From the IMG/VR virus record IMGVR_UViG_3300012232_000007, positions 1 to 43,111 of that record: a stretch of 43,111 bases of DNA. One strand, written 5' to 3'. Origin of the DNA: a virus (lineage: Duplodnaviria; Caudoviricetes). Below the pieces are notes generated by a model. The model was not told the DNA's origin, made no database searches, and saw nothing but the letters and a program-made list of their open reading frames with translations. The position numbers and the translations under genes are program-made. Below are positions 7,869 through 41,689 of the stretch, piece by piece. The number at the start of each line of letters is the position of its first letter. The stretch's first letter is position 1.

Positions 7869-8174
7869 TTACTCGGCTCCCACTTCCACTGGCAGCACGT
7901 GGTGGCCATTGTTGATGGGATTGACCACCTCCCGCATCCCGTATCCATACCCGTGCGGCTCGTTCTCTGGCTGCGATTCCTCGACCGTCTCGATCAGTTC
8001 CGGCGTCACCCCGTAGACCTTGCGGCCGTCGAGGCGGAGCTGCGTGCCGGGGGCAATGCCCATGTCCGACAGCAGCAGCTCGATCTCGTGCAGCGCCTCG
8101 TCGCGTTGCTTGACGCGGTATTCCAGCGCGGCCGCTTCGGCGTTGGTCATCTCGTGTAGAAGTTGCTCGTCCAC
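7869..8174 (-). CDS. Hypothetical protein
   Basis: AAGGAG RBS, 101 aa; possible fibre chaperone by position. Confidence 0.65.
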   Translation of the reverse strand: MDEQLLHEMTNAEAAALEYRVKQRDEALHEIELLLSDMGIAPGTQLRLDGRKVYGVTPELIETVEESQPENEPHGYGYGMREVVNPINNGHHVLPVEVGAE

Positions 8175-8183
8175 GCGTACTCC

Positions 8184-9119
8184 TTACGTCTGTGAGAAGA
8201 GGCCCAGGTTTTGCAGCGCCGTGATGACCGCATCGGTAGATGAGCCAGTCGCCACTGTTTGACGAGCCACCGCCGCGACCCCGTAGAAGCCGATGCCGAT
8301 AGCCGTGGCGACCGCCTGCACGCGCATCCCCTCGGTCTGCGTCTGTGCGCCATTGCCGCTAGCTACCTGAATCGGCGCGTTGAGGATGAGCGGAACGGTT
8401 GCGCCCGTACCCGTTCCTGCGCCTGGCTGGAGCGTCCCACTCGCGCCCGCCACGTTGGTGTCCGTGCCGGAGCGGCTGGACTCCCCGATGGTGAGGGTGT
8501 TGGCGATGGGAGAAGCGGAGTTGGCGGCGCCGATGCGGAGGGATGCCGCGCCCACGCGGCCGAGGGTGATATCACTAGCTCCCTGCCACGTAGATGCAAA
8601 CCCTATCTGAGTAACGTTTACATGATCGGTAATGCGAATACCGTTATTGCCCCCAGTAACAATATCAAGAATATTCAACCCAGCTTGACTTATAATAACA
8701 CTCGTAGTAGTACCTAAATATAAAGTATTTGTGACCAGCAATGGTGACGCTGACGTATTCAACGTTGACGTTAGCGTCAGCCGCGTGGCGTAGGTCTGCG
8801 TCGTGCTGCCACTGGCCACGGCCGTCGCGGTCTGGAGGATCAGGCTGCTGCCCGTCGCGTTGCCAGTGCCCAGCCCCGAGCGGATGGTGCCACTCGCCCC
8901 CGCCACGTTCGTATCAGTACCCGGACGGCTCGCCTCGCCAAGGGTGAGCGTCTGCGCGATCGGCGTGGCGCTGGGCGCGGCTCCCAGGCGCAGCGAGGCG
9001 GCGGCCAGGCGGGCGAGGGTTACGTCCTGGTTGGCGGTGTCCAGCACAAGGGAGTCAAATTTGCCCGCGCCGGCGTAGATGCCGGTGAAACCAATAGAAA
9101 CCGGAGCTTGTAAAGTCAC
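8184..9119 (-). CDS. Putative head fibre/decoration protein with duplicated ~78-aa module
   Basis: G/T/S/A-rich; two copies of D[VI]TLxRxxAASLR[LI]GAA...GTDTNVAGASGT; C-terminal ITALQNLGL. Confidence 0.65.
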   Translation of the reverse strand: MTLQAPVSIGFTGIYAGAGKFDSLVLDTANQDVTLARLAAASLRLGAAPSATPIAQTLTLGEASRPGTDTNVAGASGTIRSGLGTGNATGSSLILQTATAVASGSTTQTYATRLTLTSTLNTSASPLLVTNTLYLGTTTSVIISQAGLNILDIVTGGNNGIRITDHVNVTQIGFASTWQGASDITLGRVGAASLRIGAANSASPIANTLTIGESSRSGTDTNVAGASGTLQPGAGTGTGATVPLILNAPIQVASGNGAQTQTEGMRVQAVATAIGIGFYGVAAVARQTVATGSSTDAVITALQNLGLFSQT

Positions 9120-9128
9120 GGTGCCCCC

Positions 9129-9518
9129 TCAGCGCAAGTACATGGTGACGACACCCTGCTTGGCGTTACCCGCATTCGTGATACTGAGGCTCAGCACGCT
9201 ATCAACGAACACCGTACTGCCGTAGGTGTTCGATCCGACTACGGTCTGGATCACGGGCACGAATTGCTCCGAGCTCGTGGTGTCGCGGTCGGCCCCCGTT
9301 CCACCCAGCACGTCTACCCCGTCCGCATCGGTAATCACGACATCGTAGTTATCGGTCGGCGCCGTAGCCCCTGGGTTCGTCACCACCCGCAGGATCTCGC
9401 CGGTTATCCGCCCCGTATCGGTGCCACTGACATTCCCGGACGCGTCGGAGGTCCAGGTCCAGACAACACGTTGCATTCCCGCCGGTCGGTCATAGGTGAT
9501 GGCGACGGTGCCAGCCAT
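9129..9518 (-). CDS. Hypothetical virion protein (beta-rich)
   Basis: Head module; ATAPTDNYDVVITDADGVDVLGG. Confidence 0.65.
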   Translation of the reverse strand: MAGTVAITYDRPAGMQRVVWTWTSDASGNVSGTDTGRITGEILRVVTNPGATAPTDNYDVVITDADGVDVLGGTGADRDTTSSEQFVPVIQTVVGSNTYGSTVFVDSVLSLSITNAGNAKQGVVTMYLR

Positions 9519-9857
9519 TTACCGGCCCTTGTTTGCGGGCGGCTGACGGATCGCCTTGTCATCCTTGGGCGGCTCAGCCTTGCTCTCGGCCTCCTCCTCG
9601 AGGGGGTCCGGCTCCGGAGGGGGCGAGTCCTCCGGAGCCGGTTCGACCACGGGAGAGGGGGCCGATTGCGGATCGAGCAGGCCGTATTTCTCAGCCAGCT
9701 CGAGGGGGATCTCACCGTTCTCCCCGCACAGCACGAAGGCGGCTTCGGTCGAGGATTCCGGCACGAGCTTGGATTTGTCGAAGTTGACGTACAGCCGCTC
9801 TGGAGAGCGGTACATGCCCGGACTTGGCATCCCACTGTCCTCCCGAATGATCGCCAT
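9519..9857 (-). CDS. Hypothetical capsid-associated protein
   Basis: Head module; acidic Pro-rich tail ending PANKGR. Confidence 0.65.
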   Translation of the reverse strand: MAIIREDSGMPSPGMYRSPERLYVNFDKSKLVPESSTEAAFVLCGENGEIPLELAEKYGLLDPQSAPSPVVEPAPEDSPPPEPDPLEEEAESKAEPPKDDKAIRQPPANKGR

Positions 9858-9860
9858 GCT

Positions 9861-10691
9861 TTAGGTCACGCTGCCGATGACGGTGTAGCTGGGCGCCGCC
9901 GCCGTGCCAGTGTTGACGTAGTTTTTGCCATTCGCCGTATCCACCACCAGCGTCCCCGCCGGCGCTCCGATGAACGCCGCGGTCACGCCCGGCGTGGTCT
10001 CTGCGATGCTCAGGGTGGCGGTGCCGGTCAGCGCGTTGGTGTCGACCGTGACCAGCGGCTGCGCCCGCTTAGCGAGATTGGCGCCGCTGAAGGTCAGGAG
10101 GAAGTTCCCGACCCCCGCCGTCAGGGTGCTGTCCGACGCCACGATACCGACCTTGCCGACGTTCTTGAGGCCCTGCGTGCCCGGCGTGGTGCGAGCCACC
10201 GAGATGTCAGCGCCGGTCCGGTTGTCGACCACCTCGAGCGCGAGCTGTGGCCCGAACGCCGCGAAGGTGACGGTCAGCGTACCCACGCCTGCCGTCATGG
10301 TCCCTACAGCCGTCACAACGCCGCTAGTGCCGATGTTGCTGAGGGCCTCGAGCGCGGTATCCACGTTGTCGCGCAACGTGTTGTTCGTCGCTGACCACGT
10401 GATAGCGGCAGTCCGCTGGCCGGCCAGGCGCAGACGGAACGTGCCCGAGGGGGTGGCCGCAAACGTGATCGTCTGCACCTCGGCCGTACCCTGGAGCGCG
10501 TTGTTGACGTTGGCCAGCAACGTGGCGTTCGTGGCGGACCACGCGATGTCACCGGTCACATGCCCTTCGTAGGCGAGCTTGAACGTGCCGCCGGTGGCGT
10601 CGATGGTGGCGGTCTGGACTTCATCGGTGCCGGCCCCCGGCGCCCCGCTCATGCGGTAGGCCCTGGTAGTGGCGCCCTCAATCGTAGGCAA
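9861..10691 (-). CDS. Putative capsid decoration protein with two EVQT modules
   Basis: Directly after MCP; EVQT..GTF.L....T..I.WSATN.TL..NV..AL present twice. Confidence 0.7.
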   Translation of the reverse strand: MPTIEGATTRAYRMSGAPGAGTDEVQTATIDATGGTFKLAYEGHVTGDIAWSATNATLLANVNNALQGTAEVQTITFAATPSGTFRLRLAGQRTAAITWSATNNTLRDNVDTALEALSNIGTSGVVTAVGTMTAGVGTLTVTFAAFGPQLALEVVDNRTGADISVARTTPGTQGLKNVGKVGIVASDSTLTAGVGNFLLTFSGANLAKRAQPLVTVDTNALTGTATLSIAETTPGVTAAFIGAPAGTLVVDTANGKNYVNTGTAAAPSYTVIGSVT

Positions 10692-10734: not shown

Positions 10735-11979
10735 CTAAATCGAGGTAACTGTGCAAAATGCACTCGGACGATAGCAGGCAAGCGCCAAACGAGACTCAGC
10801 CATGATTTTTACTCTGTTATAGAGGAAATCAGAGCCGTCCTCGGTGGCCACCGTGATGTTGATGCCCTCACGTCGGAAGACTTCTGCCTGGGTGCTGAAC
10901 GCCCCGACTAGCGCCGTGTTCTCGGTCATGGCCGTGGTGACCCGCACCGGCAGTCCCCAAATGCGATCCGGTCCCTCGTCGGAGGGGTTGCCCCAAATGT
11001 AGATGCCGTCGAGGGTCCGCAGGAGCTTGAGGTCGGTCCAGTCATTCGGATGAAACACGACCCCCGACGGCTCGCTGAACCCGCTACCGGCCGAGCCACG
11101 CACCTTCTGCATGGCCTTGTACACGGCGTCGGGGGTCGGGTCCGCGCCCTTGGCCTGGGTCTGCACACTGCGCGACAGGATGCCGGGGATGTTGGGCGCC
11201 ACGCCGTCGCCAGAGAGGATCTGCGCCTCTTCAGCCCGCTGCACCATGTAGGCCAGCCGACCCCGCACGGTGCTCTCCACCATCGGGATGTCGTCGAGGG
11301 CTTCCTTGGTCATGGGCACCCAGGTAGCAATCTTGCGCACCGTCTCGGTGCGCAGCGTCCACGCCAGCGCGGATTCGGGCTTGAGGGCGGACTCGGCCAC
11401 CGTGTCAGCCGCGTTGGTCAGGGTGGTCTCCTCGAAGTAGTCGATGGTCGGGCGATCGGTGCTGCCCTGCATCATCAGGTCCATCACCGTGCGGGTCTCG
11501 ACGCCCATGTCCTGGGTGCCACCCCGGGCCGCCTGGGGGGTCATGGAGCCGATGGTGATGATCGTCTTCCAGCTCACGCCGGGAATCTCGAGGCTGAACG
11601 AGCGCAGGCCACCGTCGCGGAACGCCTTGTACTGGCGGTCTTCCTGCAAGAGGCGGCGGAGGTCGCCGGGCTTGAAGGTCTTCGACTCGCTGGCCAGACC
11701 AGGATGCAGCATGTTGCCGGCCGGGGTCTGCGCCACGCGGATGGCCCGCTCATTGTCCTGGGCGATGCGGGCCGCGTGGGCCAGGTCGGATTCCTTGGCC
11801 GCCAGGTCGTTGATGATGGCATCGCGCCGGCGGATCTCGGCCACCTTGGCGGACGAGTCCATCATGCCGAGCAGAGTTACCTTATCCATGTCGAGGGATT
11901 CGCCGGCCTGCTCATAAATGTCGTGCAGATCCTTGCGGCGGGCGTCCAGTTCTTCTCGAACGTCAGTCAGGGAGGTCAA
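10735..11979 (-). CDS. Major capsid protein, HK97 fold
   Basis: Coiled-coil delta domain; VAESALKPES, QILSGDG, FHPNDW, IWGLPVRVT, AESRLALACYRPSAF. Confidence 0.96.
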   Translation of the reverse strand: MTSLTDVREELDARRKDLHDIYEQAGESLDMDKVTLLGMMDSSAKVAEIRRRDAIINDLAAKESDLAHAARIAQDNERAIRVAQTPAGNMLHPGLASESKTFKPGDLRRLLQEDRQYKAFRDGGLRSFSLEIPGVSWKTIITIGSMTPQAARGGTQDMGVETRTVMDLMMQGSTDRPTIDYFEETTLTNAADTVAESALKPESALAWTLRTETVRKIATWVPMTKEALDDIPMVESTVRGRLAYMVQRAEEAQILSGDGVAPNIPGILSRSVQTQAKGADPTPDAVYKAMQKVRGSAGSGFSEPSGVVFHPNDWTDLKLLRTLDGIYIWGNPSDEGPDRIWGLPVRVTTAMTENTALVGAFSTQAEVFRREGINITVATEDGSDFLYNRVKIMAESRLALACYRPSAFCTVTSI

Positions 11980-12908
11980 GGGCGTGCTCCTTCTAATGCC
12001 ACTCCAGCCGAGTGGTTGAGATCCCGGTGCAGCGCGTCGAGGGTCTGGAAGCGGGCGAACATCGCCCGGAGCTCCGCCTGTTGCGCCTTCTCCGGGTCAG
12101 GGGTGATGGCCGGCTCGGTGGCGGTGAGCAGGGAGTCGAGCTGGCCTGCCAGTTCGTCCATTTGCTCGCGCAGCGCATGGAGTCGGCGTCGGTTCGCCTC
12201 GGACAGCACGCGTCCGGACTTCTGGCGGAGATCCGCTATCTCGCGGGCCCGCTCAGCAACGGCGGAGGAGTCGAGCAGCACGCGCTCGAACTGATCCGCA
12301 AAGCGCTCGGTGATGGGTTCGGGGTCATCGTCTTCGGGCTCGGGGTCCGGTTCGGGCTCTGGAGGAGGGGCAACCTTGAAGCCGGGCACGGTCCACAGAT
12401 TGACGGGCCGCTCGGTATAGGGGTGCGATTTGATGCCGGTTACCTGGGCGAAGGAGTCGGCCGGGATCGCCACCAGCGAGGTCTCGAATACCTCGATCTC
12501 TTGCAGCTCCCGGGTCACGCCATCCTTGCCATCGCGGTCGGCCCACTGGTGCGCCAGGTAGCCGATGGACAACCCCATTGACTTGCCCCGCGCAATGCGC
12601 TCGGCGGCAATGGTGCGGGCGTTCTGCGCTTCCGGGGTGCTGTGGAAATCAGCCGTGATGTAGAGGCCGGTACGGTCCTGCTTGGCGGACGCTACCGTGC
12701 CGATCATGGTCTCCCAGTCATGCGACCAGGCAATAAACCCATTGTCGACAAAGCGGCTCAGATGCTTGGTGTAGGCACCAGGCGCAATGGTGTCACCGTA
12801 GGAGTCGACGTTGCCGAAGGTCGAGGCGTATCCGGCCAGGGAGCCGGTACCGTCACCGCTAACCTTCGCTTCGGTGAGCGGCAGGATTTTCCATTCGGGA
12901 ACGGGCAT
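11976..12908 (-). CDS. HK97-family prohead protease
   Basis: GYASTFGNVDSYGD, WSHD (His), GLSIGY (Ser), ETSLVAIPAD; C-terminal KSGRVLSEANRRRL. Confidence 0.95.
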   Translation of the reverse strand: MPVPEWKILPLTEAKVSGDGTGSLAGYASTFGNVDSYGDTIAPGAYTKHLSRFVDNGFIAWSHDWETMIGTVASAKQDRTGLYITADFHSTPEAQNARTIAAERIARGKSMGLSIGYLAHQWADRDGKDGVTRELQEIEVFETSLVAIPADSFAQVTGIKSHPYTERPVNLWTVPGFKVAPPPEPEPDPEPEDDDPEPITERFADQFERVLLDSSAVAERAREIADLRQKSGRVLSEANRRRLHALREQMDELAGQLDSLLTATEPAITPDPEKAQQAELRAMFARFQTLDALHRDLNHSAGVALEGARP

Positions 12909-12995
12909 AGAAATGGCCCCCAAGTGCTGCGACTTGGGGGCCACGATGCAGCGTGGGCACGAGTTACCCGATATGCAATTGAGGGAATAGTACCA
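12909..12995 (-). promoter_or_regulatory. Promoter and RBS-sequestering hairpin of protease/capsid operon
   Basis: TG-G-TACTAT (12995-12987); perfect 12-bp stem 12914-12943 ending 5 nt before ATG. Confidence 0.6.
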
Positions 12996-12998
12996 CAG

Positions 12999-13178
12999 TT
13001 ACGGACTAGGCTGGCCTGCGACCGGCTCGCTCTGGTTCCGAGCCTTGCACCGAGGGCACGTAACGCACCACGGACGCGAGGCTTGCTCGATCAGCAAACG
13101 TCGGCAACGCCAGCAGCGGACATCGACATCCGTCACCAGCGCCGGCCGCTCCATCTGCGCCACGCCGTCAGCGGTCAC
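12999..13178 (-). CDS. com: Mu Com-like zinc-finger protein
   Basis: DVRCWRCRRLL...VTCPRCKARN matches the Com CxxC...CPRC..N pattern. Confidence 0.75.
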   Translation of the reverse strand: MTADGVAQMERPALVTDVDVRCWRCRRLLIEQASRPWCVTCPRCKARNQSEPVAGQPSP

Positions 13179-13429
13179 TCGGCTGGCTCCCGCTTCGACC
13201 ATTGCACGCAACCAAACGTCTCATGCGTAGCTAGTCCTGCCATGTACTGCTCACCGTCAAAGCCCATAGCGAGCGTCGTGGGTTCCATCGGACTGAGGCC
13301 GTTTAACAAGGCGGGGCCTTTGCCACTCTCCGCCCACGCCATATCACAATGGCCCCAATCAGCCGGGTATCTCTCGACCGGATTCCGCCACCAGCGACAG
13401 GTCAAGCACTCGCCTTCATGATTACTCAT
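13175..13429 (-). CDS. Hypothetical Cys-rich protein
   Basis: CLTCRWW..WGHC..THETFGCVQW; coupled overlaps. Confidence 0.65.
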   Translation of the reverse strand: MSNHEGECLTCRWWRNPVERYPADWGHCDMAWAESGKGPALLNGLSPMEPTTLAMGFDGEQYMAGLATHETFGCVQWSKREPAE

Positions 13430-13608
13430 TCGGCGGCATCCATCTGCGCGTACAGATCCTCGGGCGATTCCTTGACCCAATACCCGAGCGGAGCCCCGAG
13501 CATATCAATCGCAGAGCCCCCCTCGTGCGGACGGATCGACACGATAAAGTCGATCCGGAATCGCCCTTCGCTGCCATCCTGAAACGTGGCGCGGATGAAA
13601 CCGCTCAC
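13426..13608 (-). CDS. Hypothetical protein
   Basis: GTGA-coupled start; MSGFIRATF...VKESPEDLYAQM. Confidence 0.6.
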   Translation of the reverse strand: MSGFIRATFQDGSEGRFRIDFIVSIRPHEGGSAIDMLGAPLGYWVKESPEDLYAQMDAAE

Positions 13609-13982
13609 GCCGTCACCAGTTCCCGGTGCTCGACGTGCCCGTTGTGGCTGGTCGCCTCGCGCCGCCAGAGCATCCGCAAAGGTCGTTCTGCCCCACTGCC
13701 CACCATACGCATCTCCCGACGGAACCAACGCCATTCCCGAAGACGATACGCCCACCATCGGAGTAGCCCCTGGTCATCACGATAGACAAGGATGGGCGCT
13801 GGTGCTCGCGGACGATCCGCCCCAAACGGAATCCACTGCGCGACCTTACGAACAGACTCTGTGCGAAACGTCCAACTGGCGGGATCTATATCGGGATACC
13901 GATTGCGCAGGTGTTCGCGCATGAGGTCATCCGTCATAGGAGCATTGGTCAAAGTGACCGGCTCGAAGTAAGAGATCGTCAC
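13605..13982 (-). CDS. Chimeric protein: capsid E-loop-like N-terminus plus portal-like C-terminus
   Basis: GTG overlaps portal TGA; TISYFEPVTLTNA and WTFRTESVRKVAQWIP match MCP; ends SHNGHVEHRELVTA. Confidence 0.65.
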   Translation of the reverse strand: MTISYFEPVTLTNAPMTDDLMREHLRNRYPDIDPASWTFRTESVRKVAQWIPFGADRPRAPAPILVYRDDQGLLRWWAYRLREWRWFRREMRMVGSGAERPLRMLWRREATSHNGHVEHRELVTA

Positions 13983-14030
13983 ACCCCCACCAACTCTTTC
14001 GCCTCGACGTGCCCGTTGTGGCTGGCCGCC
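13605..14030. repeat. ~50-bp imperfect direct repeat (13605-13657 and 13979-14030), 22-bp exact core
   Basis: TCGACGTGCCCGTTGTGGCTGG at 13630-13651 and 14004-14025. Confidence 0.85.
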
Positions 14031-16105
14031 TGGATCTGTGAGGCACGGGTCAGGGGGCTTGGGCAGACCCGGCAATTTGGGTGCAGGAGGGTGAGCCCCT
14101 TTGCCTCTGCCAGTGGTAAACGCTTCCCGTTGCGGTCAACACAACCCGTGAACGCACCATCCGCCCCATCAGGGTCGATGATCTCGACACCAACAACCAC
14201 GCCGCTCGCCTCGAACGAGAGCATCGAGGCGTCCACGGTGGCCCGGCCCAATTCGGTACGCGCAATCACCCGAGCACGGGTCTCGCTAAACTGCGTCATC
14301 CGCTGCACCCGCACCATGAGCTCGTCCACGCCCTCGCCCAGCGCCTGCCCCTCCTGCAGCGTGTGGGCAATCGCCCGCTGGGTGGTCTCCGTGATGCCGA
14401 CGATGTTCTGGCCCGCTTGCTGGAGGTAGGCCCGAGTCAAGGGGTCGTCAATCTCGAACGAGGTGCCCAGCACATCCTGCGCCACGTTGTGGGTGCCGTT
14501 CAGCGCCTGCTGATACGCCTTGTGGAACAGCGATTCGAGTAACCGCTGCTCCTCGTTCCAGTCGAGCACTTCCTCACCGGCTTTCGTCTCATGGAACGGC
14601 GCCGCCTTCAGCGTGCCCCGCAGTCCAGCAATCAAGCGCGATTGCTGCCCGCTGAGATAGTTCGCTACCTGTCGCTCAAAGGGCGATTGCAGGCGCGCGC
14701 GCAGACGGTGGATGGCTGGTACATAGTTGGCGGCGTCCTTCGTCTCCAGCGTGCCCCACAGCGCGTCTGAGAATGATTTGGGGATGTCGTCATCCTCAGT
14801 GTCCGGCTCGGTGGGGGCAGACTCAGGGGCGACCGGCTCAGGCACCACACCAATCATGTCCGCCGTGGTCGGCGTGACGTTGATCGGCAGATAGTACACA
14901 TCGCCGTCCGGGCCGATGGTCTCCAGACCCCGCATCTCGAGCGACTGGTTCAGCGTGATCCCGCCCTTGGCCAGCGCATCGTCTACGCGATGCCACAGCG
15001 CGTTCTGGTCGTCCTGCAGCGCCCGCACCGTGGAGATGTCGAAGTCGAACACATCGCGCCGGGGGTCCGCGAACTGCGGCATGAGCTGGCGCTGGATCTC
15101 GCGGGCGAAGAAACGCCACGCCGGGATCAGCACGTTCTCGGTGGCCTGCTCCTTGGCCTCGCGCATGTTGTTGTACGTCGATCGGTCCAAGCCCGCCCCG
15201 AGCCCGCACACGACAGCCGGCACGCCGATCACCGCCGAGATCCGTTCCTCGGGCACCCGGCGCAGGGTCTTGTAATCCATGTCGGAGGGGTTGAACGACA
15301 TGAACTGGACCTTCGTCCGGCCGGACATTACCAGCGGCTCACCTCGATGGTCGCCGGTCGTCTTCTGGTAATAGTTCGTCTTGATCTTGTCGGCTTCGGG
15401 TTCGTCAATGCTATCTTCGTCGTCCGGCGAGATCATGACATGCGGGCCCGCGCCATTCGCCAGCAGGTTGGAGCTCCAGGTGGCCGCTTCATCGTCGGTG
15501 AAGATTTCCCGCAGCAGACAGTCCAGATCACTCGAGCCCTTCTGCGGATACTTGGGGTCCAGGCCGTTCCTAAAGTGGACGACATCGGTGATCTCGAGGC
15601 GGATAGGGTCACGCTCGGGACGCGGCCGGTACTCATAGTGCGAGATGAACGTGCCAGGATCATCGCCCTGGGCCGGCTCCATCATGGCGGACGGTGCCCA
15701 CCAGAGCTGTACGGGTCGGCCCTGTGTGTTCTTGAGCACGATCCAGTAGGCGTTACCCCTGCGCCATTCGCGGTAGGTGGCATCGAATAGGGTCAGGCTG
15801 GAGTAGAAGGGGTTGGGGGTGTCGAGCAGTTCGACCAGCGGGTGATTGTCTACCGGATCAAGTTGGCCTTTGGCACCACGTCGACGGACTCGGAGCTCAG
15901 CCTCGGGGAAATTGTCGGTGATCCAGCGGAACTGGGCCTGGACGATGCTGTTATGGCTACCATCGCCCTGGTACTGGCTGTAGTCGGAGCGGGAGAGCCC
16001 GTGCACCCAGCCCCAGCCCGGACCGAATAGCTGGGATGAACGGCCGAACACCATACGGCTGACCGCCTTGACCCTTGCCCCGATCCGGTTGAGCAGCCCT
16101 GGCAA
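13979..16105 (-). CDS. Portal protein fused to MuF/SPP1 gp7-like minor head domain
   Basis: HPLVELLDTPNP, GNAYW, DVVHFR, STYNNMRE; C-terminal RARVIARTE...LHPNCR. Confidence 0.93.
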   Translation of the reverse strand: MPGLLNRIGARVKAVSRMVFGRSSQLFGPGWGWVHGLSRSDYSQYQGDGSHNSIVQAQFRWITDNFPEAELRVRRRGAKGQLDPVDNHPLVELLDTPNPFYSSLTLFDATYREWRRGNAYWIVLKNTQGRPVQLWWAPSAMMEPAQGDDPGTFISHYEYRPRPERDPIRLEITDVVHFRNGLDPKYPQKGSSDLDCLLREIFTDDEAATWSSNLLANGAGPHVMISPDDEDSIDEPEADKIKTNYYQKTTGDHRGEPLVMSGRTKVQFMSFNPSDMDYKTLRRVPEERISAVIGVPAVVCGLGAGLDRSTYNNMREAKEQATENVLIPAWRFFAREIQRQLMPQFADPRRDVFDFDISTVRALQDDQNALWHRVDDALAKGGITLNQSLEMRGLETIGPDGDVYYLPINVTPTTADMIGVVPEPVAPESAPTEPDTEDDDIPKSFSDALWGTLETKDAANYVPAIHRLRARLQSPFERQVANYLSGQQSRLIAGLRGTLKAAPFHETKAGEEVLDWNEEQRLLESLFHKAYQQALNGTHNVAQDVLGTSFEIDDPLTRAYLQQAGQNIVGITETTQRAIAHTLQEGQALGEGVDELMVRVQRMTQFSETRARVIARTELGRATVDASMLSFEASGVVVGVEIIDPDGADGAFTGCVDRNGKRLPLAEAKGLTLLHPNCRVCPSPLTRASQIQAASHNGHVEAKELVGV

Positions 16106-27745: not shown

Positions 27746-27942
27746 GGCCACACCCCATGCCGCCACAGCGCCGCCAGCAGCACCACCGCGAACAGCGTGG
27801 CGAGGTAGGCCCCGCCGGCAATCCCGTTCAGTACCGCACGCCAGTGCCGCCGCACGAACAGCCACAGCGAGCGCCGGGTGAGCCGCCGCTGGTGCCGGTG
27901 CCGGGCCGGGGCGTAGGCCACCGGGTGCAGATGGGCGGTCAT
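27742..27942 (-). CDS. Small membrane protein
   Basis: ATGA-coupled; C-terminal TM segment. Confidence 0.55.
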   Translation of the reverse strand: MTAHLHPVAYAPARHRHQRRLTRRSLWLFVRRHWRAVLNGIAGGAYLATLFAVVLLAALWRHGVWP

Positions 27943-28637
27943 GACGCCCGCTCCAGAGGCTGGCCAGCGAGATACCAATAGAGTCGTTTGGATTGCCACT
28001 GTCGTTCTGCGTCCCTGGCTGCGTCCCCGGCTGCGTCCCAGGCTGCGGCCCTGGCTGCGTCCCAGGCTGCGGCCCTGGCTGCGTCCCTGGCTGCGTCCCA
28101 GGCTGCGGCCCTGGCTGCGTCCCCGGCTGCGGCCCTGGCTGCGGCCCTGGCTGCGTCCCAGGCTGCGTCCCAGGCTGCGGCCAATTCCTCTTGTGTGGCT
28201 TCACCACGCGCGAAACGCCGCGCGACTGCGATGCTCTCCCAGGATCGCGGATCGGGTTCGCGCCCGCGTTCTCGCTCACGATTCAGGGCTCGCTCGGCAC
28301 AATCGCAGGCGAACAGGCGCGCAACCTGCGCATCCCAGTTCTCCACCCGGCTGACGAGTCGGGCACGGCGTACCACGACCTTGCTTTCGTCGGTGTCATT
28401 CACGTCCACCCGATCGCCGTCGTACTCTGCGATGAAGATGGCGGGACCGATCCAGTTGACCAGATCGGATGCTCGGCAGAGGTGGTAGCCATTGCGGCAA
28501 GGGTCCAGTGCGCCACGAATGGCGGGCATCCACTCGCCGGGACCGTCTGCGGTTGGCAGGTGCCACTGTCCCTGTCCGCCGTGATAACAACTACCGTCCT
28601 CGTTGAGGATCTTGTACAAGCGTTCAGACTCGCTCAC
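27939..28637 (-). CDS. Phage protein with Imm5-like domain and AA(W/R/G)(D/A) repeats
   Basis: CRNGYH, KVVVRR, RLFACDCAERAL..DPRSWESI.VAR.FARG, then repeats. Confidence 0.7.
   Translation of the reverse strand: MSESERLYKILNEDGSCYHGGQGQWHLPTADGPGEWMPAIRGALDPCRNGYHLCRASDLVNWIGPAIFIAEYDGDRVDVNDTDESKVVVRRARLVSRVENWDAQVARLFACDCAERALNRERERGREPDPRSWESIAVARRFARGEATQEELAAAWDAAWDAARAAARAAAGDAARAAAWDAARDAARAAAWDAARAAAWDAAGDAARDAERQWQSKRLYWYLAGQPLERAS
28008..28182. repeat. 12-bp coding tandem repeat (~14 copies)
   Basis: GGCTGCG(T/G)CCC(A/T/C) units encoding AAWD/AARA/AARD/AAGD. Confidence 0.9.
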
Positions 28638-28875
28638 TTCGCCCCCTCCCGCTCGGCGGCGCGGCGCTCGGCATCGGCCCACAGCACGTCCAGAAGCCTC
28701 TGGAGGGCGCACCCCGCCTCGGGGCTGATCCGCTATCTCGATGGAAACCACGGCGCACGTCGACTTCTAGGGCATCCCGGTAGGCGATCATGCTGGAGAT
28801 CACCGCGCCGTTACTCTTGGTGATGACCACCACCTCGTCACGGGTGGGGTACACTAGGGTTGGTTCAGGTTCCAC
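28624..28875 (-). CDS. Hypothetical protein
   Basis: AAGGAGG RBS after a hairpin at 28892-28921. Confidence 0.5.
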   Translation of the reverse strand: MEPEPTLVYPTRDEVVVITKSNGAVISSMIAYRDALEVDVRRGFHRDSGSAPRRGAPSRGFWTCCGPMPSAAPPSGRGRSERV

Positions 28876-33623: not shown

Positions 33624-33830
33624 TTAGGATCGAAACCGATAGGCGCTTTCGGCGTCGGCCTCGAACCAGGCGGAGTCTACTGAGGTGATTTTGGGGTAGG
33701 CGTGAAAGGTCCCGTACTCGAACGGATGGAGTACCTCGTTAGTGGTCTTGTACTCCTGGCCGTAGTCCTGACCTGGGTCCATCCCCTTCGCCCGCATCTG
33801 TTCAAGCCGCTTCGCAATCGCTGGGTGCAT
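33624..33830 (-). CDS. Small protein, possible LGFP-like wall-binding module
   Basis: GQEY..VLHPFEYGTFHAYP; GGAGGAGG RBS; adjacent to endolysin. Confidence 0.5.
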   Translation of the reverse strand: MHPAIAKRLEQMRAKGMDPGQDYGQEYKTTNEVLHPFEYGTFHAYPKITSVDSAWFEADAESAYRFRS

Positions 33831-34256
33831 CTAACATCCTCCTCCACTGTGCGCGGGCGCCGTCTGCGCATTCGGTCGCGCCGGCGCCTTCTGGTCTATC
33901 GACTCGTGTCGGGCGACAATCTCATCTACGGTCTCTGCGAGATACCTGCGAGCCAGTGGCGGCAGTCGGTGCATCTCGGTACGGGCTTCCGCCCCGGAGC
34001 GGTTCAGATGGTGCGCGGCGTAACTCTTCATCTCATGGTCATACTCCGCGTCGAGCAGTGTGATGAGGTCGTCCACCTGCTCATCCGTCAGGGGGGCCCG
34101 CCCCTCCGGCCGCTGGTGAAACGGGTCAGGGATAAGATGACCCGCCTGCCCCGCCTCGAGCGCATCGAACACCTCCCGCAGAAAGGCCGTGACTTCATTC
34201 TCGTAGGGCGTGATCCACGTGTTCTCGAACCATCGCCCCTCGATCATGGCCGCCAT
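33831..34256 (-). CDS. Hypothetical protein
   Basis: 141-aa ORF in operon. Confidence 0.6.
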   Translation of the reverse strand: MAAMIEGRWFENTWITPYENEVTAFLREVFDALEAGQAGHLIPDPFHQRPEGRAPLTDEQVDDLITLLDAEYDHEMKSYAAHHLNRSGAEARTEMHRLPPLARRYLAETVDEIVARHESIDQKAPARPNAQTAPAHSGGGC

Positions 34257-38495: not shown

Positions 38496-41267
38496 TCAGT
38501 ACGCCAATTTGGTGTCGGTGTCGAGCACCGATCGGGTTTCCACGATCCAGAAGCTGTCGGGCTCAGCGCGGCTCACGTTCCAGAAGATGACCGGCCGAGG
38601 ATCACCCTCCATAACAACAGATTCCTCCACGCCTTCTAAAAAGTAGTCCTCCTCGATCCCGGTGGTGCCCGGCAGCGAGTGATGAATGGTCAGCCTGGTG
38701 CCGATGTCGGCCGCGAACACCAGCGGCCACAGCGCCGAGTCCGCCCAAGGGTCGATCTGGATGCGCCGAAACCGCGACGTTGGCTGACTGCGCTGGTAGA
38801 CCAACCAATCGGCCCAGCCCTGCGCATCCTCCGCCCCGGCGAGTTGCGCGGCGGTAGCCGGGTCCAACTCGAAGTCAATCACGCCGTAGTCGTCTTGGGA
38901 TGCGCTGTCCTCTGCTACCACCGCGGTATCGAGCGCGGTCTGCACCACGGCGACGGAGATGGTGGGTGGCCCAATGACATCCGTCGCATGGAGCGTGGCG
39001 GTCATCAGCGGCACGTCAGTATGGGCCAGGTCGCCCACAAACGAGACGTCGGTTACCTGCCCGACCCAGTTGGCCGCCTGACAGCGCACATTGCCCGGAC
39101 GGATGGAGGGCAGCGCCTCGAGCGCCGCCTGGATCTCGTCCTGGCTGGCGTTCACCAGGATTTGCCCCGTTGTATAGCCCGCAAACGTGAGGTCGAACCA
39201 CCCGCCGGTGACCGTGCCGATGAAGCTGACCCGCTGCACCTCGTCGAGCGAGCCAGTGAACGGGATCGTTACCCGGTTGATCAAGCCGGCATCGTCTAAG
39301 ACCGGCTGGGGCGTGGGAATGGGGTAGTCCCCTTGCGCCCCGAACACGCCGATGCTGGTCTGGGTCAGGCGCCAGTGGCGGTCGTGATAGACCGCCACGC
39401 CACTGGCCTGAATGTAAAATGTGCCCCGTCCCGCTTTAACGATCAGATCAAGGTGCTCGAGTACCGGCGTCTTGACCAGGGATGCGGCCGGCGGTTGGAA
39501 TGTGCCGTCTGAGTCCAGCGTGACCGTCGCAATGCCCGCCGCCGTTAGTACCTCGTCTACTCGCTCCCAGTCGGTCTCCGCCGGGAAATCTGCGGTGATC
39601 TTCTGGCCCAACAATCGCTTATAAAGATCCTGTCCCGCGAGGGTGACATTCGCCCCGAGTACCAAGGGTTCAGCGGCGTAGCTATCAATGAGGACCGTGC
39701 CCCGGTAATACGTCTCGCCGCCGTAGTACGCGACCACCCTCAGCGCGCGCTTCAGCTTGAGATCGGGATAGTACGAGCTGGCGCTATTCTCCGGGTCGAG
39801 CTCGGCATCATCGTCGTCAAAGTCACAACTGAGTGAGCCGGCCGCGATGCCGCTGAGGTTATCCTGTCGCCCTCGCTGCGCCCGGTAGCCCATGAATCGG
39901 GGGCTGAGCTCCTCCCATCCCGGCCCGTCGCCCACCCAATCAGCCGGGTTCGTGGAGGGGTGAAACTGGGCATAGAAACCAGGGATCTCCGCCGGCAACG
40001 TCGGCTGGTCAATGAAGGTATTCGGCCCCAGGCAAATCTGCACATCGCAAGTAGAGGAAGCCCCGGCCCCGGTGACTTCCCACGCGAGCGCATAGAAGAG
40101 ATACTCTCCAGCCAGCGTGAGGGCCGGGATGCTCTGACTGGCCAGAGATATTTGGGCCGCGCTGGTCGTGAGATTGGTGACCGTGGTACCGACCATCGCC
40201 CCGCTCGTCACCTCGGTAGCTCCTTCGCCGGTAGGAGAGAAGCTCCGCCAGATGCGGCAGCGCATACGCCCATCCTGACTGCCACCCACCACAGTCGCCT
40301 GTACCGCGACACTGACCGTCCATGTACCGGCTGCGATCCCACCGCGGTAGATGCCGGTACGGAAGCATTCCCCATCCAGGGGTGCGCCGGAGGGCTGCGC
40401 AGTCGTGCCCCAGTCCCCGGCATCGGTCACCGCCACTCCCCGTTGCATCCGCGCATAGTTCGGAGCGGAGCGCGTGCCCACTCGCCACCCCGTGGAGGTG
40501 GTTGTGTCGAACGGCGACGGGGGATCTCCGCCCACTTGGAGCCGAGCATGATTGGACCCCTGCGCGCGTTGGGTGGGGATGGGGTAAAACGTGTGGACGG
40601 TAGCGAGAGGCGGCTCGGCCCCCGCACCGGCGTTGTAGAGGTCGCTGATGTCTGTGGGGCTAAGGGAGCTCGCCCAGCCGCCCCAGGCGTCGTACAGCCC
40701 CTCTCCGTAGGCGATGCTGTCCCACTGCGTGCCCGCCAGGTTAAACGGCGCCGCGCCGTTAAAGAAGGTGCCCGAGAACGCGACCGAGACTTCGGTGCCG
40801 TTGTTAACCGAGAGATACAGCGTGTTGCCCGAGCGGCGGACCACGATGAAATACCAGGTGTTCGCAACCGGAGCGGCCGACCAAGCGAGGATAGAGGCCG
40901 CCGTCCCGTCCGTGGAGTAGGCGAACGAGAGTTTGTTGGCGTTCCCCTGGTCGGTGAACAGCAGATACGACTTGTTGCCGGCTCCGGTGCCCTTGCCGAG
41001 AATGCCGAGGTACTGCGCGAACGCGGCGGGACTCTTCCACCAGCCAGCGAAGGTGAAGTCACCGCTGCCCAGCTCGAAGGCGGCTTCATCGGCCCGGCTC
41101 AAGTACTCCGAGTTCGCCCATACGCTTTGGGCCGCGTCACCGATCTTGCCCGCCGCGGAGGTGACGGTGTTATTGTCGGTGAGATCCCGGCCGGCGATCG
41201 AATCAACGCGATTCCCACTCGCCTCATTCAGCTTGTAATAGAACTTATCCGGTGTAGGAATGGTCAT
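38496..41267 (-). CDS. Large tail tip/hub protein with N-terminal LamG-like lectin domain
   Basis: YYKLNEASG..GKIG..DFTFAGW..WYFIVV..ISDLYNAG; RGRQ..AG..LDPEN; EVQ module. Confidence 0.8.
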   Translation of the reverse strand: MTIPTPDKFYYKLNEASGNRVDSIAGRDLTDNNTVTSAAGKIGDAAQSVWANSEYLSRADEAAFELGSGDFTFAGWWKSPAAFAQYLGILGKGTGAGNKSYLLFTDQGNANKLSFAYSTDGTAASILAWSAAPVANTWYFIVVRRSGNTLYLSVNNGTEVSVAFSGTFFNGAAPFNLAGTQWDSIAYGEGLYDAWGGWASSLSPTDISDLYNAGAGAEPPLATVHTFYPIPTQRAQGSNHARLQVGGDPPSPFDTTTSTGWRVGTRSAPNYARMQRGVAVTDAGDWGTTAQPSGAPLDGECFRTGIYRGGIAAGTWTVSVAVQATVVGGSQDGRMRCRIWRSFSPTGEGATEVTSGAMVGTTVTNLTTSAAQISLASQSIPALTLAGEYLFYALAWEVTGAGASSTCDVQICLGPNTFIDQPTLPAEIPGFYAQFHPSTNPADWVGDGPGWEELSPRFMGYRAQRGRQDNLSGIAAGSLSCDFDDDDAELDPENSASSYYPDLKLKRALRVVAYYGGETYYRGTVLIDSYAAEPLVLGANVTLAGQDLYKRLLGQKITADFPAETDWERVDEVLTAAGIATVTLDSDGTFQPPAASLVKTPVLEHLDLIVKAGRGTFYIQASGVAVYHDRHWRLTQTSIGVFGAQGDYPIPTPQPVLDDAGLINRVTIPFTGSLDEVQRVSFIGTVTGGWFDLTFAGYTTGQILVNASQDEIQAALEALPSIRPGNVRCQAANWVGQVTDVSFVGDLAHTDVPLMTATLHATDVIGPPTISVAVVQTALDTAVVAEDSASQDDYGVIDFELDPATAAQLAGAEDAQGWADWLVYQRSQPTSRFRRIQIDPWADSALWPLVFAADIGTRLTIHHSLPGTTGIEEDYFLEGVEESVVMEGDPRPVIFWNVSRAEPDSFWIVETRSVLDTDTKLAY

Positions 41268-41689
41268 CCGAAGCCTCGAGGCGGCACGGCGAACCACGGG
41301 CGCACGCGGTGCGTCTCCGGTCCCTCGTTGGCCACCCGCTGCCACTCCTGGCCCTCGATCACGACGGTCAGGGTCGCGGTGTAGCCGATCCCACTGGGCC
41401 CGTCGTACACGTCGACCTGCATGGCACAGGGGAGGTTGGCATTGCGTAACACCGGCGGGTACGGCTCGGTCTGGTCGGTGGGGGCCCGCGTGCCGATGTC
41501 GGGCCGCTTCTCGTCGCCGTCCGCTGGCGCCACCGAATGCGAGCGCAGGCCCTGCCAGAACCGGTTATTGTGCTGAGCCGCAAAGGTGCGCTGCTGCGCT
41601 TCCATCGCGGGCAACAGCCCGTTCATCTTGGCGTCGATCTGTGCGAGGATCTCATCACGCGAACGGTTGGCCTTCGCATTGCCCCGCAT
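41264..41689 (-). CDS. Hypothetical virion protein
   Basis: Coupled between TMP and tail tip; VDVYDGPSGIGY. Confidence 0.7.
   Translation of the reverse strand: MRGNAKANRSRDEILAQIDAKMNGLLPAMEAQQRTFAAQHNNRFWQGLRSHSVAPADGDEKRPDIGTRAPTDQTEPYPPVLRNANLPCAMQVDVYDGPSGIGYTATLTVVIEGQEWQRVANEGPETHRVRPWFAVPPRGFG

Follow-up and report, generated by a model that had tools for sequence, protein, structure and literature searches.

A capsid protein excerpt behind the portal gene of an HK97-type phage as a candidate decoy for capsid-sensing immunity

Bacteria sense capsid proteins directly, and the capsid is essential and can hardly be mutated by phages. In the Sau-Thoeris system, binding of ThsB1 requires the E-loop of the major capsid protein (MCP); recruitment of ThsB2 and activation require the P-loop (PMC12578639). 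Avs7, Avs8, and Avs10 also sense MCPs, and Avs7 binds mainly the A-domain, over a broad surface of the fold (PMC13581612). The available text of these two reports describes no phage-encoded capsid-fragment decoy alongside the sensors (PMC12578639, PMC13581612). In the accessible portion of the EVADES preprint, "mimic" refers to DNA mimics, and the word "capsid" is absent from the main text (10.1101/2025.06.06.658234). A search of the largely open literature, taken without supplements, returned no published description of a natural capsid-excerpt gene. The excerpts described here are new in that they come from HK97-type phages with small genomes and lie at a fixed position of the head operon.

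The window, i.e. the whole stretch of DNA that was analyzed, is a complete phage genome of 43,111 nt with direct terminal repeats. Among GTDB genomes, its capsid protein has the closest relatives in bins of Ca. Limnocylindrales and Chloroflexi, and our guess from these sequences is that the host belongs to the Chloroflexota. The head genes lie on the minus strand in the order terminase, portal-MuF fusion (13979..16105, 708 aa; PF04860, sub-threshold PF04233, phrog_2662), four small ORFs, prohead protease (11976-12944), and HK97-family MCP (10735..11979, 414 aa; PF05065, phrog_10). We refer to the interval from the end of the portal or MuF gene to the protease in viral loci as the slot. For HK97 numbering, the MCP of the window was aligned to gp5 (PDB codes 2GP1 and 1OHG), the mature protein beginning at Ser104 (PMC5701804). 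Its residues K200, N388, E395, E184, and R241 occupy the positions of HK97 K169, N356, E363, E153, and R210.

The first gene after portal-MuF is a putative mini-gene of 125 amino acids (13605..13982, minus strand). Its GTG start overlaps the portal stop (GTGA), and a further overlap joins its stop to the GTG that follows; the protein has no Pfam or PHROG match. Residues 2–14 (13941..13979, minus strand) correspond to MCP 178–190 (HK97 147–159), the first strand of the E-loop, and residues 37–52 (13827..13874, minus strand) correspond to MCP 207–222 (HK97 176–191), the return strand into the P-domain. The source segment in the MCP gene, located by BLASTP and alignment with the ORF, comprises the E-loop residues 178–222 (11314..11448, minus strand). 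Between the two strands, residues 15–36 (13875..13940, minus strand) substitute for the 16-residue tip of the E-loop, which spans gp5 160–175 and includes the crosslink lysine K169, and offer no equivalent of K200/K169. The strands are followed by a Trp/Arg-rich middle (residues 53–100; 13683..13826, minus strand) with a weak codon score. This segment had no Pfam or PHROG match, and a third virion protein was rejected as its origin (best match, WRWFRREMR of the portal, p 0.135). The rest of the slot (12999..13608, minus strand) holds two small ORFs (13426-13608 and 13175-13429) and a Com-like zinc-ribbon gene, all of them lacking a capsid-piece signal; the 60-aa ORF at 13426-13608 has no Pfam match. 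We presume it to be FlbD/SwrD-like. A promoter-like site was not found in 12800-14300.

The likeness to the capsid protein, first proposed in the preliminary description, is real. BLASTP aligns the ORF with the MCP of the same phage at 24 of 52 identical residues (E 4e-10), and the Smith-Waterman score of 101 was reached by none of 5000 shuffles (maximum 58); the best of 150 ORF shuffles against the whole six-frame genome scored 72. When the whole genome was searched in six frames with an MCP profile built from relatives, the ORF was matched as well (iE 9e-4). The assignment of this MCP segment to the HK97 E-loop, made at the outset, is borne out by the gp5 alignment, in which K200 falls on K169. 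Across both strands, 21 of 29 residues are identical in spite of 10 synonymous codon differences; the match holds at the protein level as had been claimed. The intervening tip is indeed replaced: it counts 22 residues instead of 16, with identity at 3/16 positions (strands versus tip, Fisher p 7e-4), whereas 23 MCPs of similar strand identity keep 7–13 of the 16 tip residues. Within the first strand, the ORF has a proline at the position of E184, a residue found in 83 of 85 MCP segments, and the near-invariant E184 and T185 are both changed. The equivalent of E184 in HK97, E153, has a role in assembly. The construct used for the Prohead II crystals reportedly lacked a similar E-loop tip, and the Prohead II chain is 9 residues shorter in our alignment with HK97 gp5.

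The ORF protein cannot serve as a capsid subunit, and in this respect the earlier proposal of a non-assembling protein stood. The MCP profile covers it only at positions 177–222 of 411, and PF05065 does not match. A full HK97-fold MCP was rejected as an identity because spine helix, A-domain, and P-loop are lacking and no more than about 29 of the 282 residues of the mature protein are present; a Ccm-like protein, an MCP paralogue of nearly full length carried by a satellite, was rejected for a protein of 125 aa on a complete phage genome. Structure prediction of the ORF alone, proposed as a check, gave a low-confidence model with a helix at residues 18–28 (pLDDT about 53–70 there); the single-sequence AlphaFold model as a whole is unreliable (pLDDT 47), with the second strand drawn as a helix. 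The model of the MCP was likewise poor (pLDDT 42).

The capsid piece is derived, judging from its residues, from the phage's own MCP lineage: the ORF retains F182 and L187, each present in 4–5% of 85 MCP segments, and its strands are closest to the MCP of one related locus (L015, 23/29), followed by the phage's own (21/29). Relative to the latter, the strands show a pS of 0.69 and a pN of 0.20, values that are no proof of selection on the ORF because the silent change may predate it, from its time within an MCP gene. In simulated neutral drift of 0.3–0.9, 125 codons stayed stop-free in 5% to 0.5% of runs. The loss of the tip versus the kept strands, together with the open frame, points beyond neutral decay.

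The end of the ORF has a different source. Its last residues match the end of portal-MuF (13 of 23 identical, E 2e-5; 1 of 5000 shuffles), and the copy of the portal C terminus noted earlier is present; it is mainly a DNA repeat and not a recoded protein match. The 53-nt direct repeat (77% identity, 23 nt identical) has only two copies in the genome. Copy 1 (13979..14031, minus strand) is the 3' end of portal-MuF and supplies the ORF start, and copy 2 (13605..13657, minus strand) encodes the ORF tail with an NGH motif and forms the GTGA junction to the next gene. Since the repeat recreates this stop-start overlap, duplication explains the tail without a function of the protein, and DNA duplication is the preferred reading of the portal piece. 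Neither portal nor MuF profiles match the ORF, and a portal or MuF protein was rejected as its identity, as only the last 25 residues are shared, beyond the MuF domain.

These repeats bear on a rather unlikely explanation, a recombination scar. A piece of the MCP gene of a sister phage would have been dropped behind the portal by microhomology recombination, the duplicated portal end would have restored translational coupling, and the frame would be open by chance or through recent origin, with no capsid-related job for the product. The 23 identical nucleotides that bracket the ORF fit such an event, as do the Sak-like annealing protein encoded by the phage and the change of both E184 and T185. 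A scar would, however, require that the tip alone was exchanged, in frame, by a second event. Even a scar would provide a clear snapshot of a gene assembled from a phage's own parts.

The ORF is not an assembly artifact because another IMG/VR contig carries it with a single silent change and a contig of run X3 covers 13220-14866 without differences; the window itself may stem from run X1. The gene callers recorded an overlapping frame (13426-13758) instead, which covers the ORF from 13758 down, and none of the four starts of the ORF is on record among the gene calls. Under a codon model, in which genes mostly score 0.1–0.6, the ends of the ORF score 0.17 and 0.44 and its middle −0.19; over the overlap, the mini-gene frame scores 0.02 versus −0.15 for the recorded frame. 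The frame is open for 51 codons upstream of the start, and inspection by eye showed no slippery site for portal read-through or frameshifting into the ORF. The absence of a gene call and of homologues agrees with a scar. A search of 1.84 billion protein representatives gave 0 matches, although homologues passed over by gene callers, as this ORF was, could escape such searches. No independent homologue was found in the protein collection (near and longer lengths), the ESM Atlas, or PDB sequences, and INPHARED held nothing independent (best E 0.1). The homologue search in IMG/VR that had been proposed recovered the near-identical strain only, so a diverged homologue for dN/dS is missing. In metagenomes, the ORF matched the window's own contig (L007) and an ORF of another contig (L008), which we take to be a bacterial GST-like frame hit by chance. 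A post-portal ORF of a further locus (L003) shows a weak likeness (E 0.034). A search with an E-loop profile returned 89 short proteins that look like ordinary MCP fragments: the MCP profile covers at least 75% of the length of 79, and the remaining 10, of low coverage, keep the normal tip. The frame of the ORF is open and its strands have pN < pS relative to the MCP, in an ORF for which no homologues were found and which gene callers skipped.

Capsid excerpts were found in the same slot of relatives. Small frames were compared with the structural proteins of their own locus, initially in 149 loci. A first set of 28 loci has 111 slot ORFs, three of which match the MCP of their locus at p<0.001. 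One (L035:40-279) carries the start of the spine helix of its own MCP (15/27 identical, E 9e-8, 0/3000 shuffles) and scores best with that MCP among 182; the others, from a related pair of loci (L004/L005), copy an A-domain motif (1/3000 and 0/3000 shuffles). A fresh scan covered the 59 non-redundant of 75 new loci, of which 17 had a slot interval and the rest were without one. Here, 1 of 60 slot ORFs matches its own MCP at p<0.001 (L162:4538-4711), with a helix and a strand of the same A-domain region as in L004/L005 (0/5000 shuffles); this mini-gene scores higher with other MCPs (up to 72) than with its own (60). Not counted as excerpts were L028 and an ORF of 56 aa right after a portal stop (L016:1279-1449, plus strand) with a weak A-domain likeness (19/3000 shuffles).

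The two sets together comprise 45 loci with 171 slot ORFs; four of these ORFs, from three independent lineages, match the MCP of their locus at p<0.001. No control reaches the same threshold: of 465 ORFs that lie downstream of the MCP, none matches its own MCP, and slot ORFs match the reversed MCP (0/171), the portal (0/134), or the protease (0/171) in no case. For the three independent cases, the slot differs from downstream with p 0.019 and from all controls with p 0.004, values to be read with the slot having been defined after L035 was seen, so that only the 17-locus fresh scan is an independent test, and with p-values that come from fits to 60 shuffles and a slot set in which many ORFs are spurious frames. 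The mini-gene of L162 directly follows a portal stop and those of L004/L005 follow a MuF-like ORF, whereas in L035 the contig ends within the gene upstream. Each of these mini-genes begins at a stop that it overlaps and is located ahead of a zinc-ribbon gene. They have no homology to the ORF of the window and are without its NG tail. Family profiles alone missed them, and only the MCP of each locus revealed them. Such recurrence at the same gene position is not what a one-off scar, the refuting case named in the preliminary description, predicts. That slot content varies between relatives would suit a scar; a scar would leave unexplained why slot ORFs match the MCP and not the equally close portal or protease, and why downstream ORFs never do.

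Further resemblances to structural proteins and repeats were seen elsewhere. In the window, a 141-aa ORF near the lysis genes (33831-34256, minus strand) resembles residues 474–574 of the phage's own portal-MuF (27%, E 9e-5; 0/150 shuffles when compared with the structural proteins as a pool; the best among 24 other small ORFs examined); the MuF profile does not match it, no relative was found, and it is possibly a second self-excerpt. The 68-aa ORF next to it (33624-33830, minus strand) shares 10 of 20 residues with MCP 265–284 and scores best with the phage's own MCP (46), a borderline match whose score was reached by 4 of 150 shuffles. A locus in a Thermoleophilaceae bin has two capsid genes (L159:1916-3026 and 9033-10250), one of them split into two frames. 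The gene after the MCP (9861-10691, minus strand) contains three internal repeats, and its repeat domain recurs in a large tail-region protein (38496-41345, minus strand; iE 2e-15). A 12-nt tandem repeat at 27983-28222, within ORF 27939-28751, is read as AAWDAAR-type repeats.

The position in the head operon would also suit a modulator or poison of head assembly, an explanation we regard as unlikely. The excerpt would bind capsid subunits, either those of its own phage or those of a related phage or satellite that co-infects the cell, in the manner of Ccm, an MCP homologue that targets the helper capsid protein (PMC5052747); in Prohead I, the E-loop folds against a neighboring P-domain (PMC10275583). 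The NGH tail might address the excerpt to the prohead. Of 42 portal-only tails, 19 have NG within the last 22 residues, encoded by differing codons, and NG lies there in 14 of 93 protease tails versus 0 of 113 MCP and 0 of 23 terminase tails; a second set had it in 9 of 32 tails. Asn-Gly(-His) near the C terminus was noted in related portal and some protease tails (e.g. L020, L022, L031, L047, L054, L072), and ORF 7869-8174 of the window has NGH 12 residues from its end. The tail is perhaps an address tag for the prohead; the other mini-genes, however, are devoid of it. The loss of the E153 and K169 equivalents weakens the poison version, a poison matching its own lineage would harm the phage itself, and an excerpt in only 4/45 slot loci is not a core assembly factor.

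The mini-genes have a net basic, aromatic composition in common. This composition, the loss of contact residues from a kept strand pattern, and a neighbor that is a Com-like regulator would fit a small protein that borrowed a stable MCP hairpin as a scaffold for a non-capsid job, e.g. Trp/Arg-rich nucleic-acid binding. We consider this improbable; it gives no reason for the borrowing of three different capsid segments at a single position.

We tentatively favor the ORF as a non-assembling capsid excerpt that acts as a decoy for a host capsid-sensing immune protein, a possibility still short of even confidence. It resembles a known immune trigger, the MCP and its E-loop (BLASTP E 4e-10). Its translation would be coupled to the portal stop, and it would appear with the head proteins, including the capsid protein; its strands would be maintained by selection, and its partner would be an immune sensor. 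The excerpt would occupy an E-loop-binding sensor that needs another capsid surface for activation, so that no trigger follows. If the separate requirements of Sau-Thoeris for binding and activation apply, an E-loop-only piece would bind without triggering. Because protein fragments act by titration and inhibit abundant targets worst (PMC9245647), a scarce partner is favored over the capsid itself. Against a decoy, the hairpin alone may not bind, given the broad grip of Avs7 on the A-domain, and the replaced tip might be the very part that a sensor reads. The A-domain bound by Avs7 is the region copied in L004/L005 and L162, and a short excerpt may lack the broad surface.

More tentatively still, ordinary HK97-type phages of 40–60 kb could keep a decoy slot directly behind the portal that each lineage refills with surface excerpts of its own MCP; translated along with the head genes, these would jam capsid sensing. 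Different capsid surfaces in different phages would fit turnover against changing partners. If so, the excerpts as a set (E-loop stem, spine-helix start, A-domain) would map the capsid surfaces that bacterial sensors read. By displaying a single capsid surface and none of the others, such a gene would then be a way out of capsid sensing, and the four excerpts are short, defined test pieces for sensor-bound capsid surfaces.

Among described proteins, the closest in sequence is the E-loop of HK97 gp5 (PF05065, phrog_10), to which ORF residues 2–14 and 37–52 align through the phage's own MCP at 147–159 and 176–191; unlike gp5, the ORF has about 29 of the 282 mature residues and a replaced tip in place of that with K169. 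Like Ccm of SaPIbov5, it is MCP-derived and cannot replace the capsid protein through which Ccm interferes, whereas Ccm comprises a whole predicted HK97 fold and is satellite-encoded against a helper (PMC5052747). ThsB1/ThsB2 of Sau-Thoeris and Avs7/8/10 are the kind of partner that a capsid excerpt could occupy, although they are host sensors of other bacteria (PMC12578639, PMC13581612). Engineered dominant-negative fragments likewise keep one interaction and titrate it, but they come from laboratory libraries and are not natural genes (PMC9245647). The proposed decoy logic, in which a look-alike binds a defense protein, is that of T7 Ocr (PMC12409349; 10.1101/2025.06.06.658234). Whereas Ocr mimics DNA, the ORF takes a structural protein of the phage itself as its template and copies its sequence.
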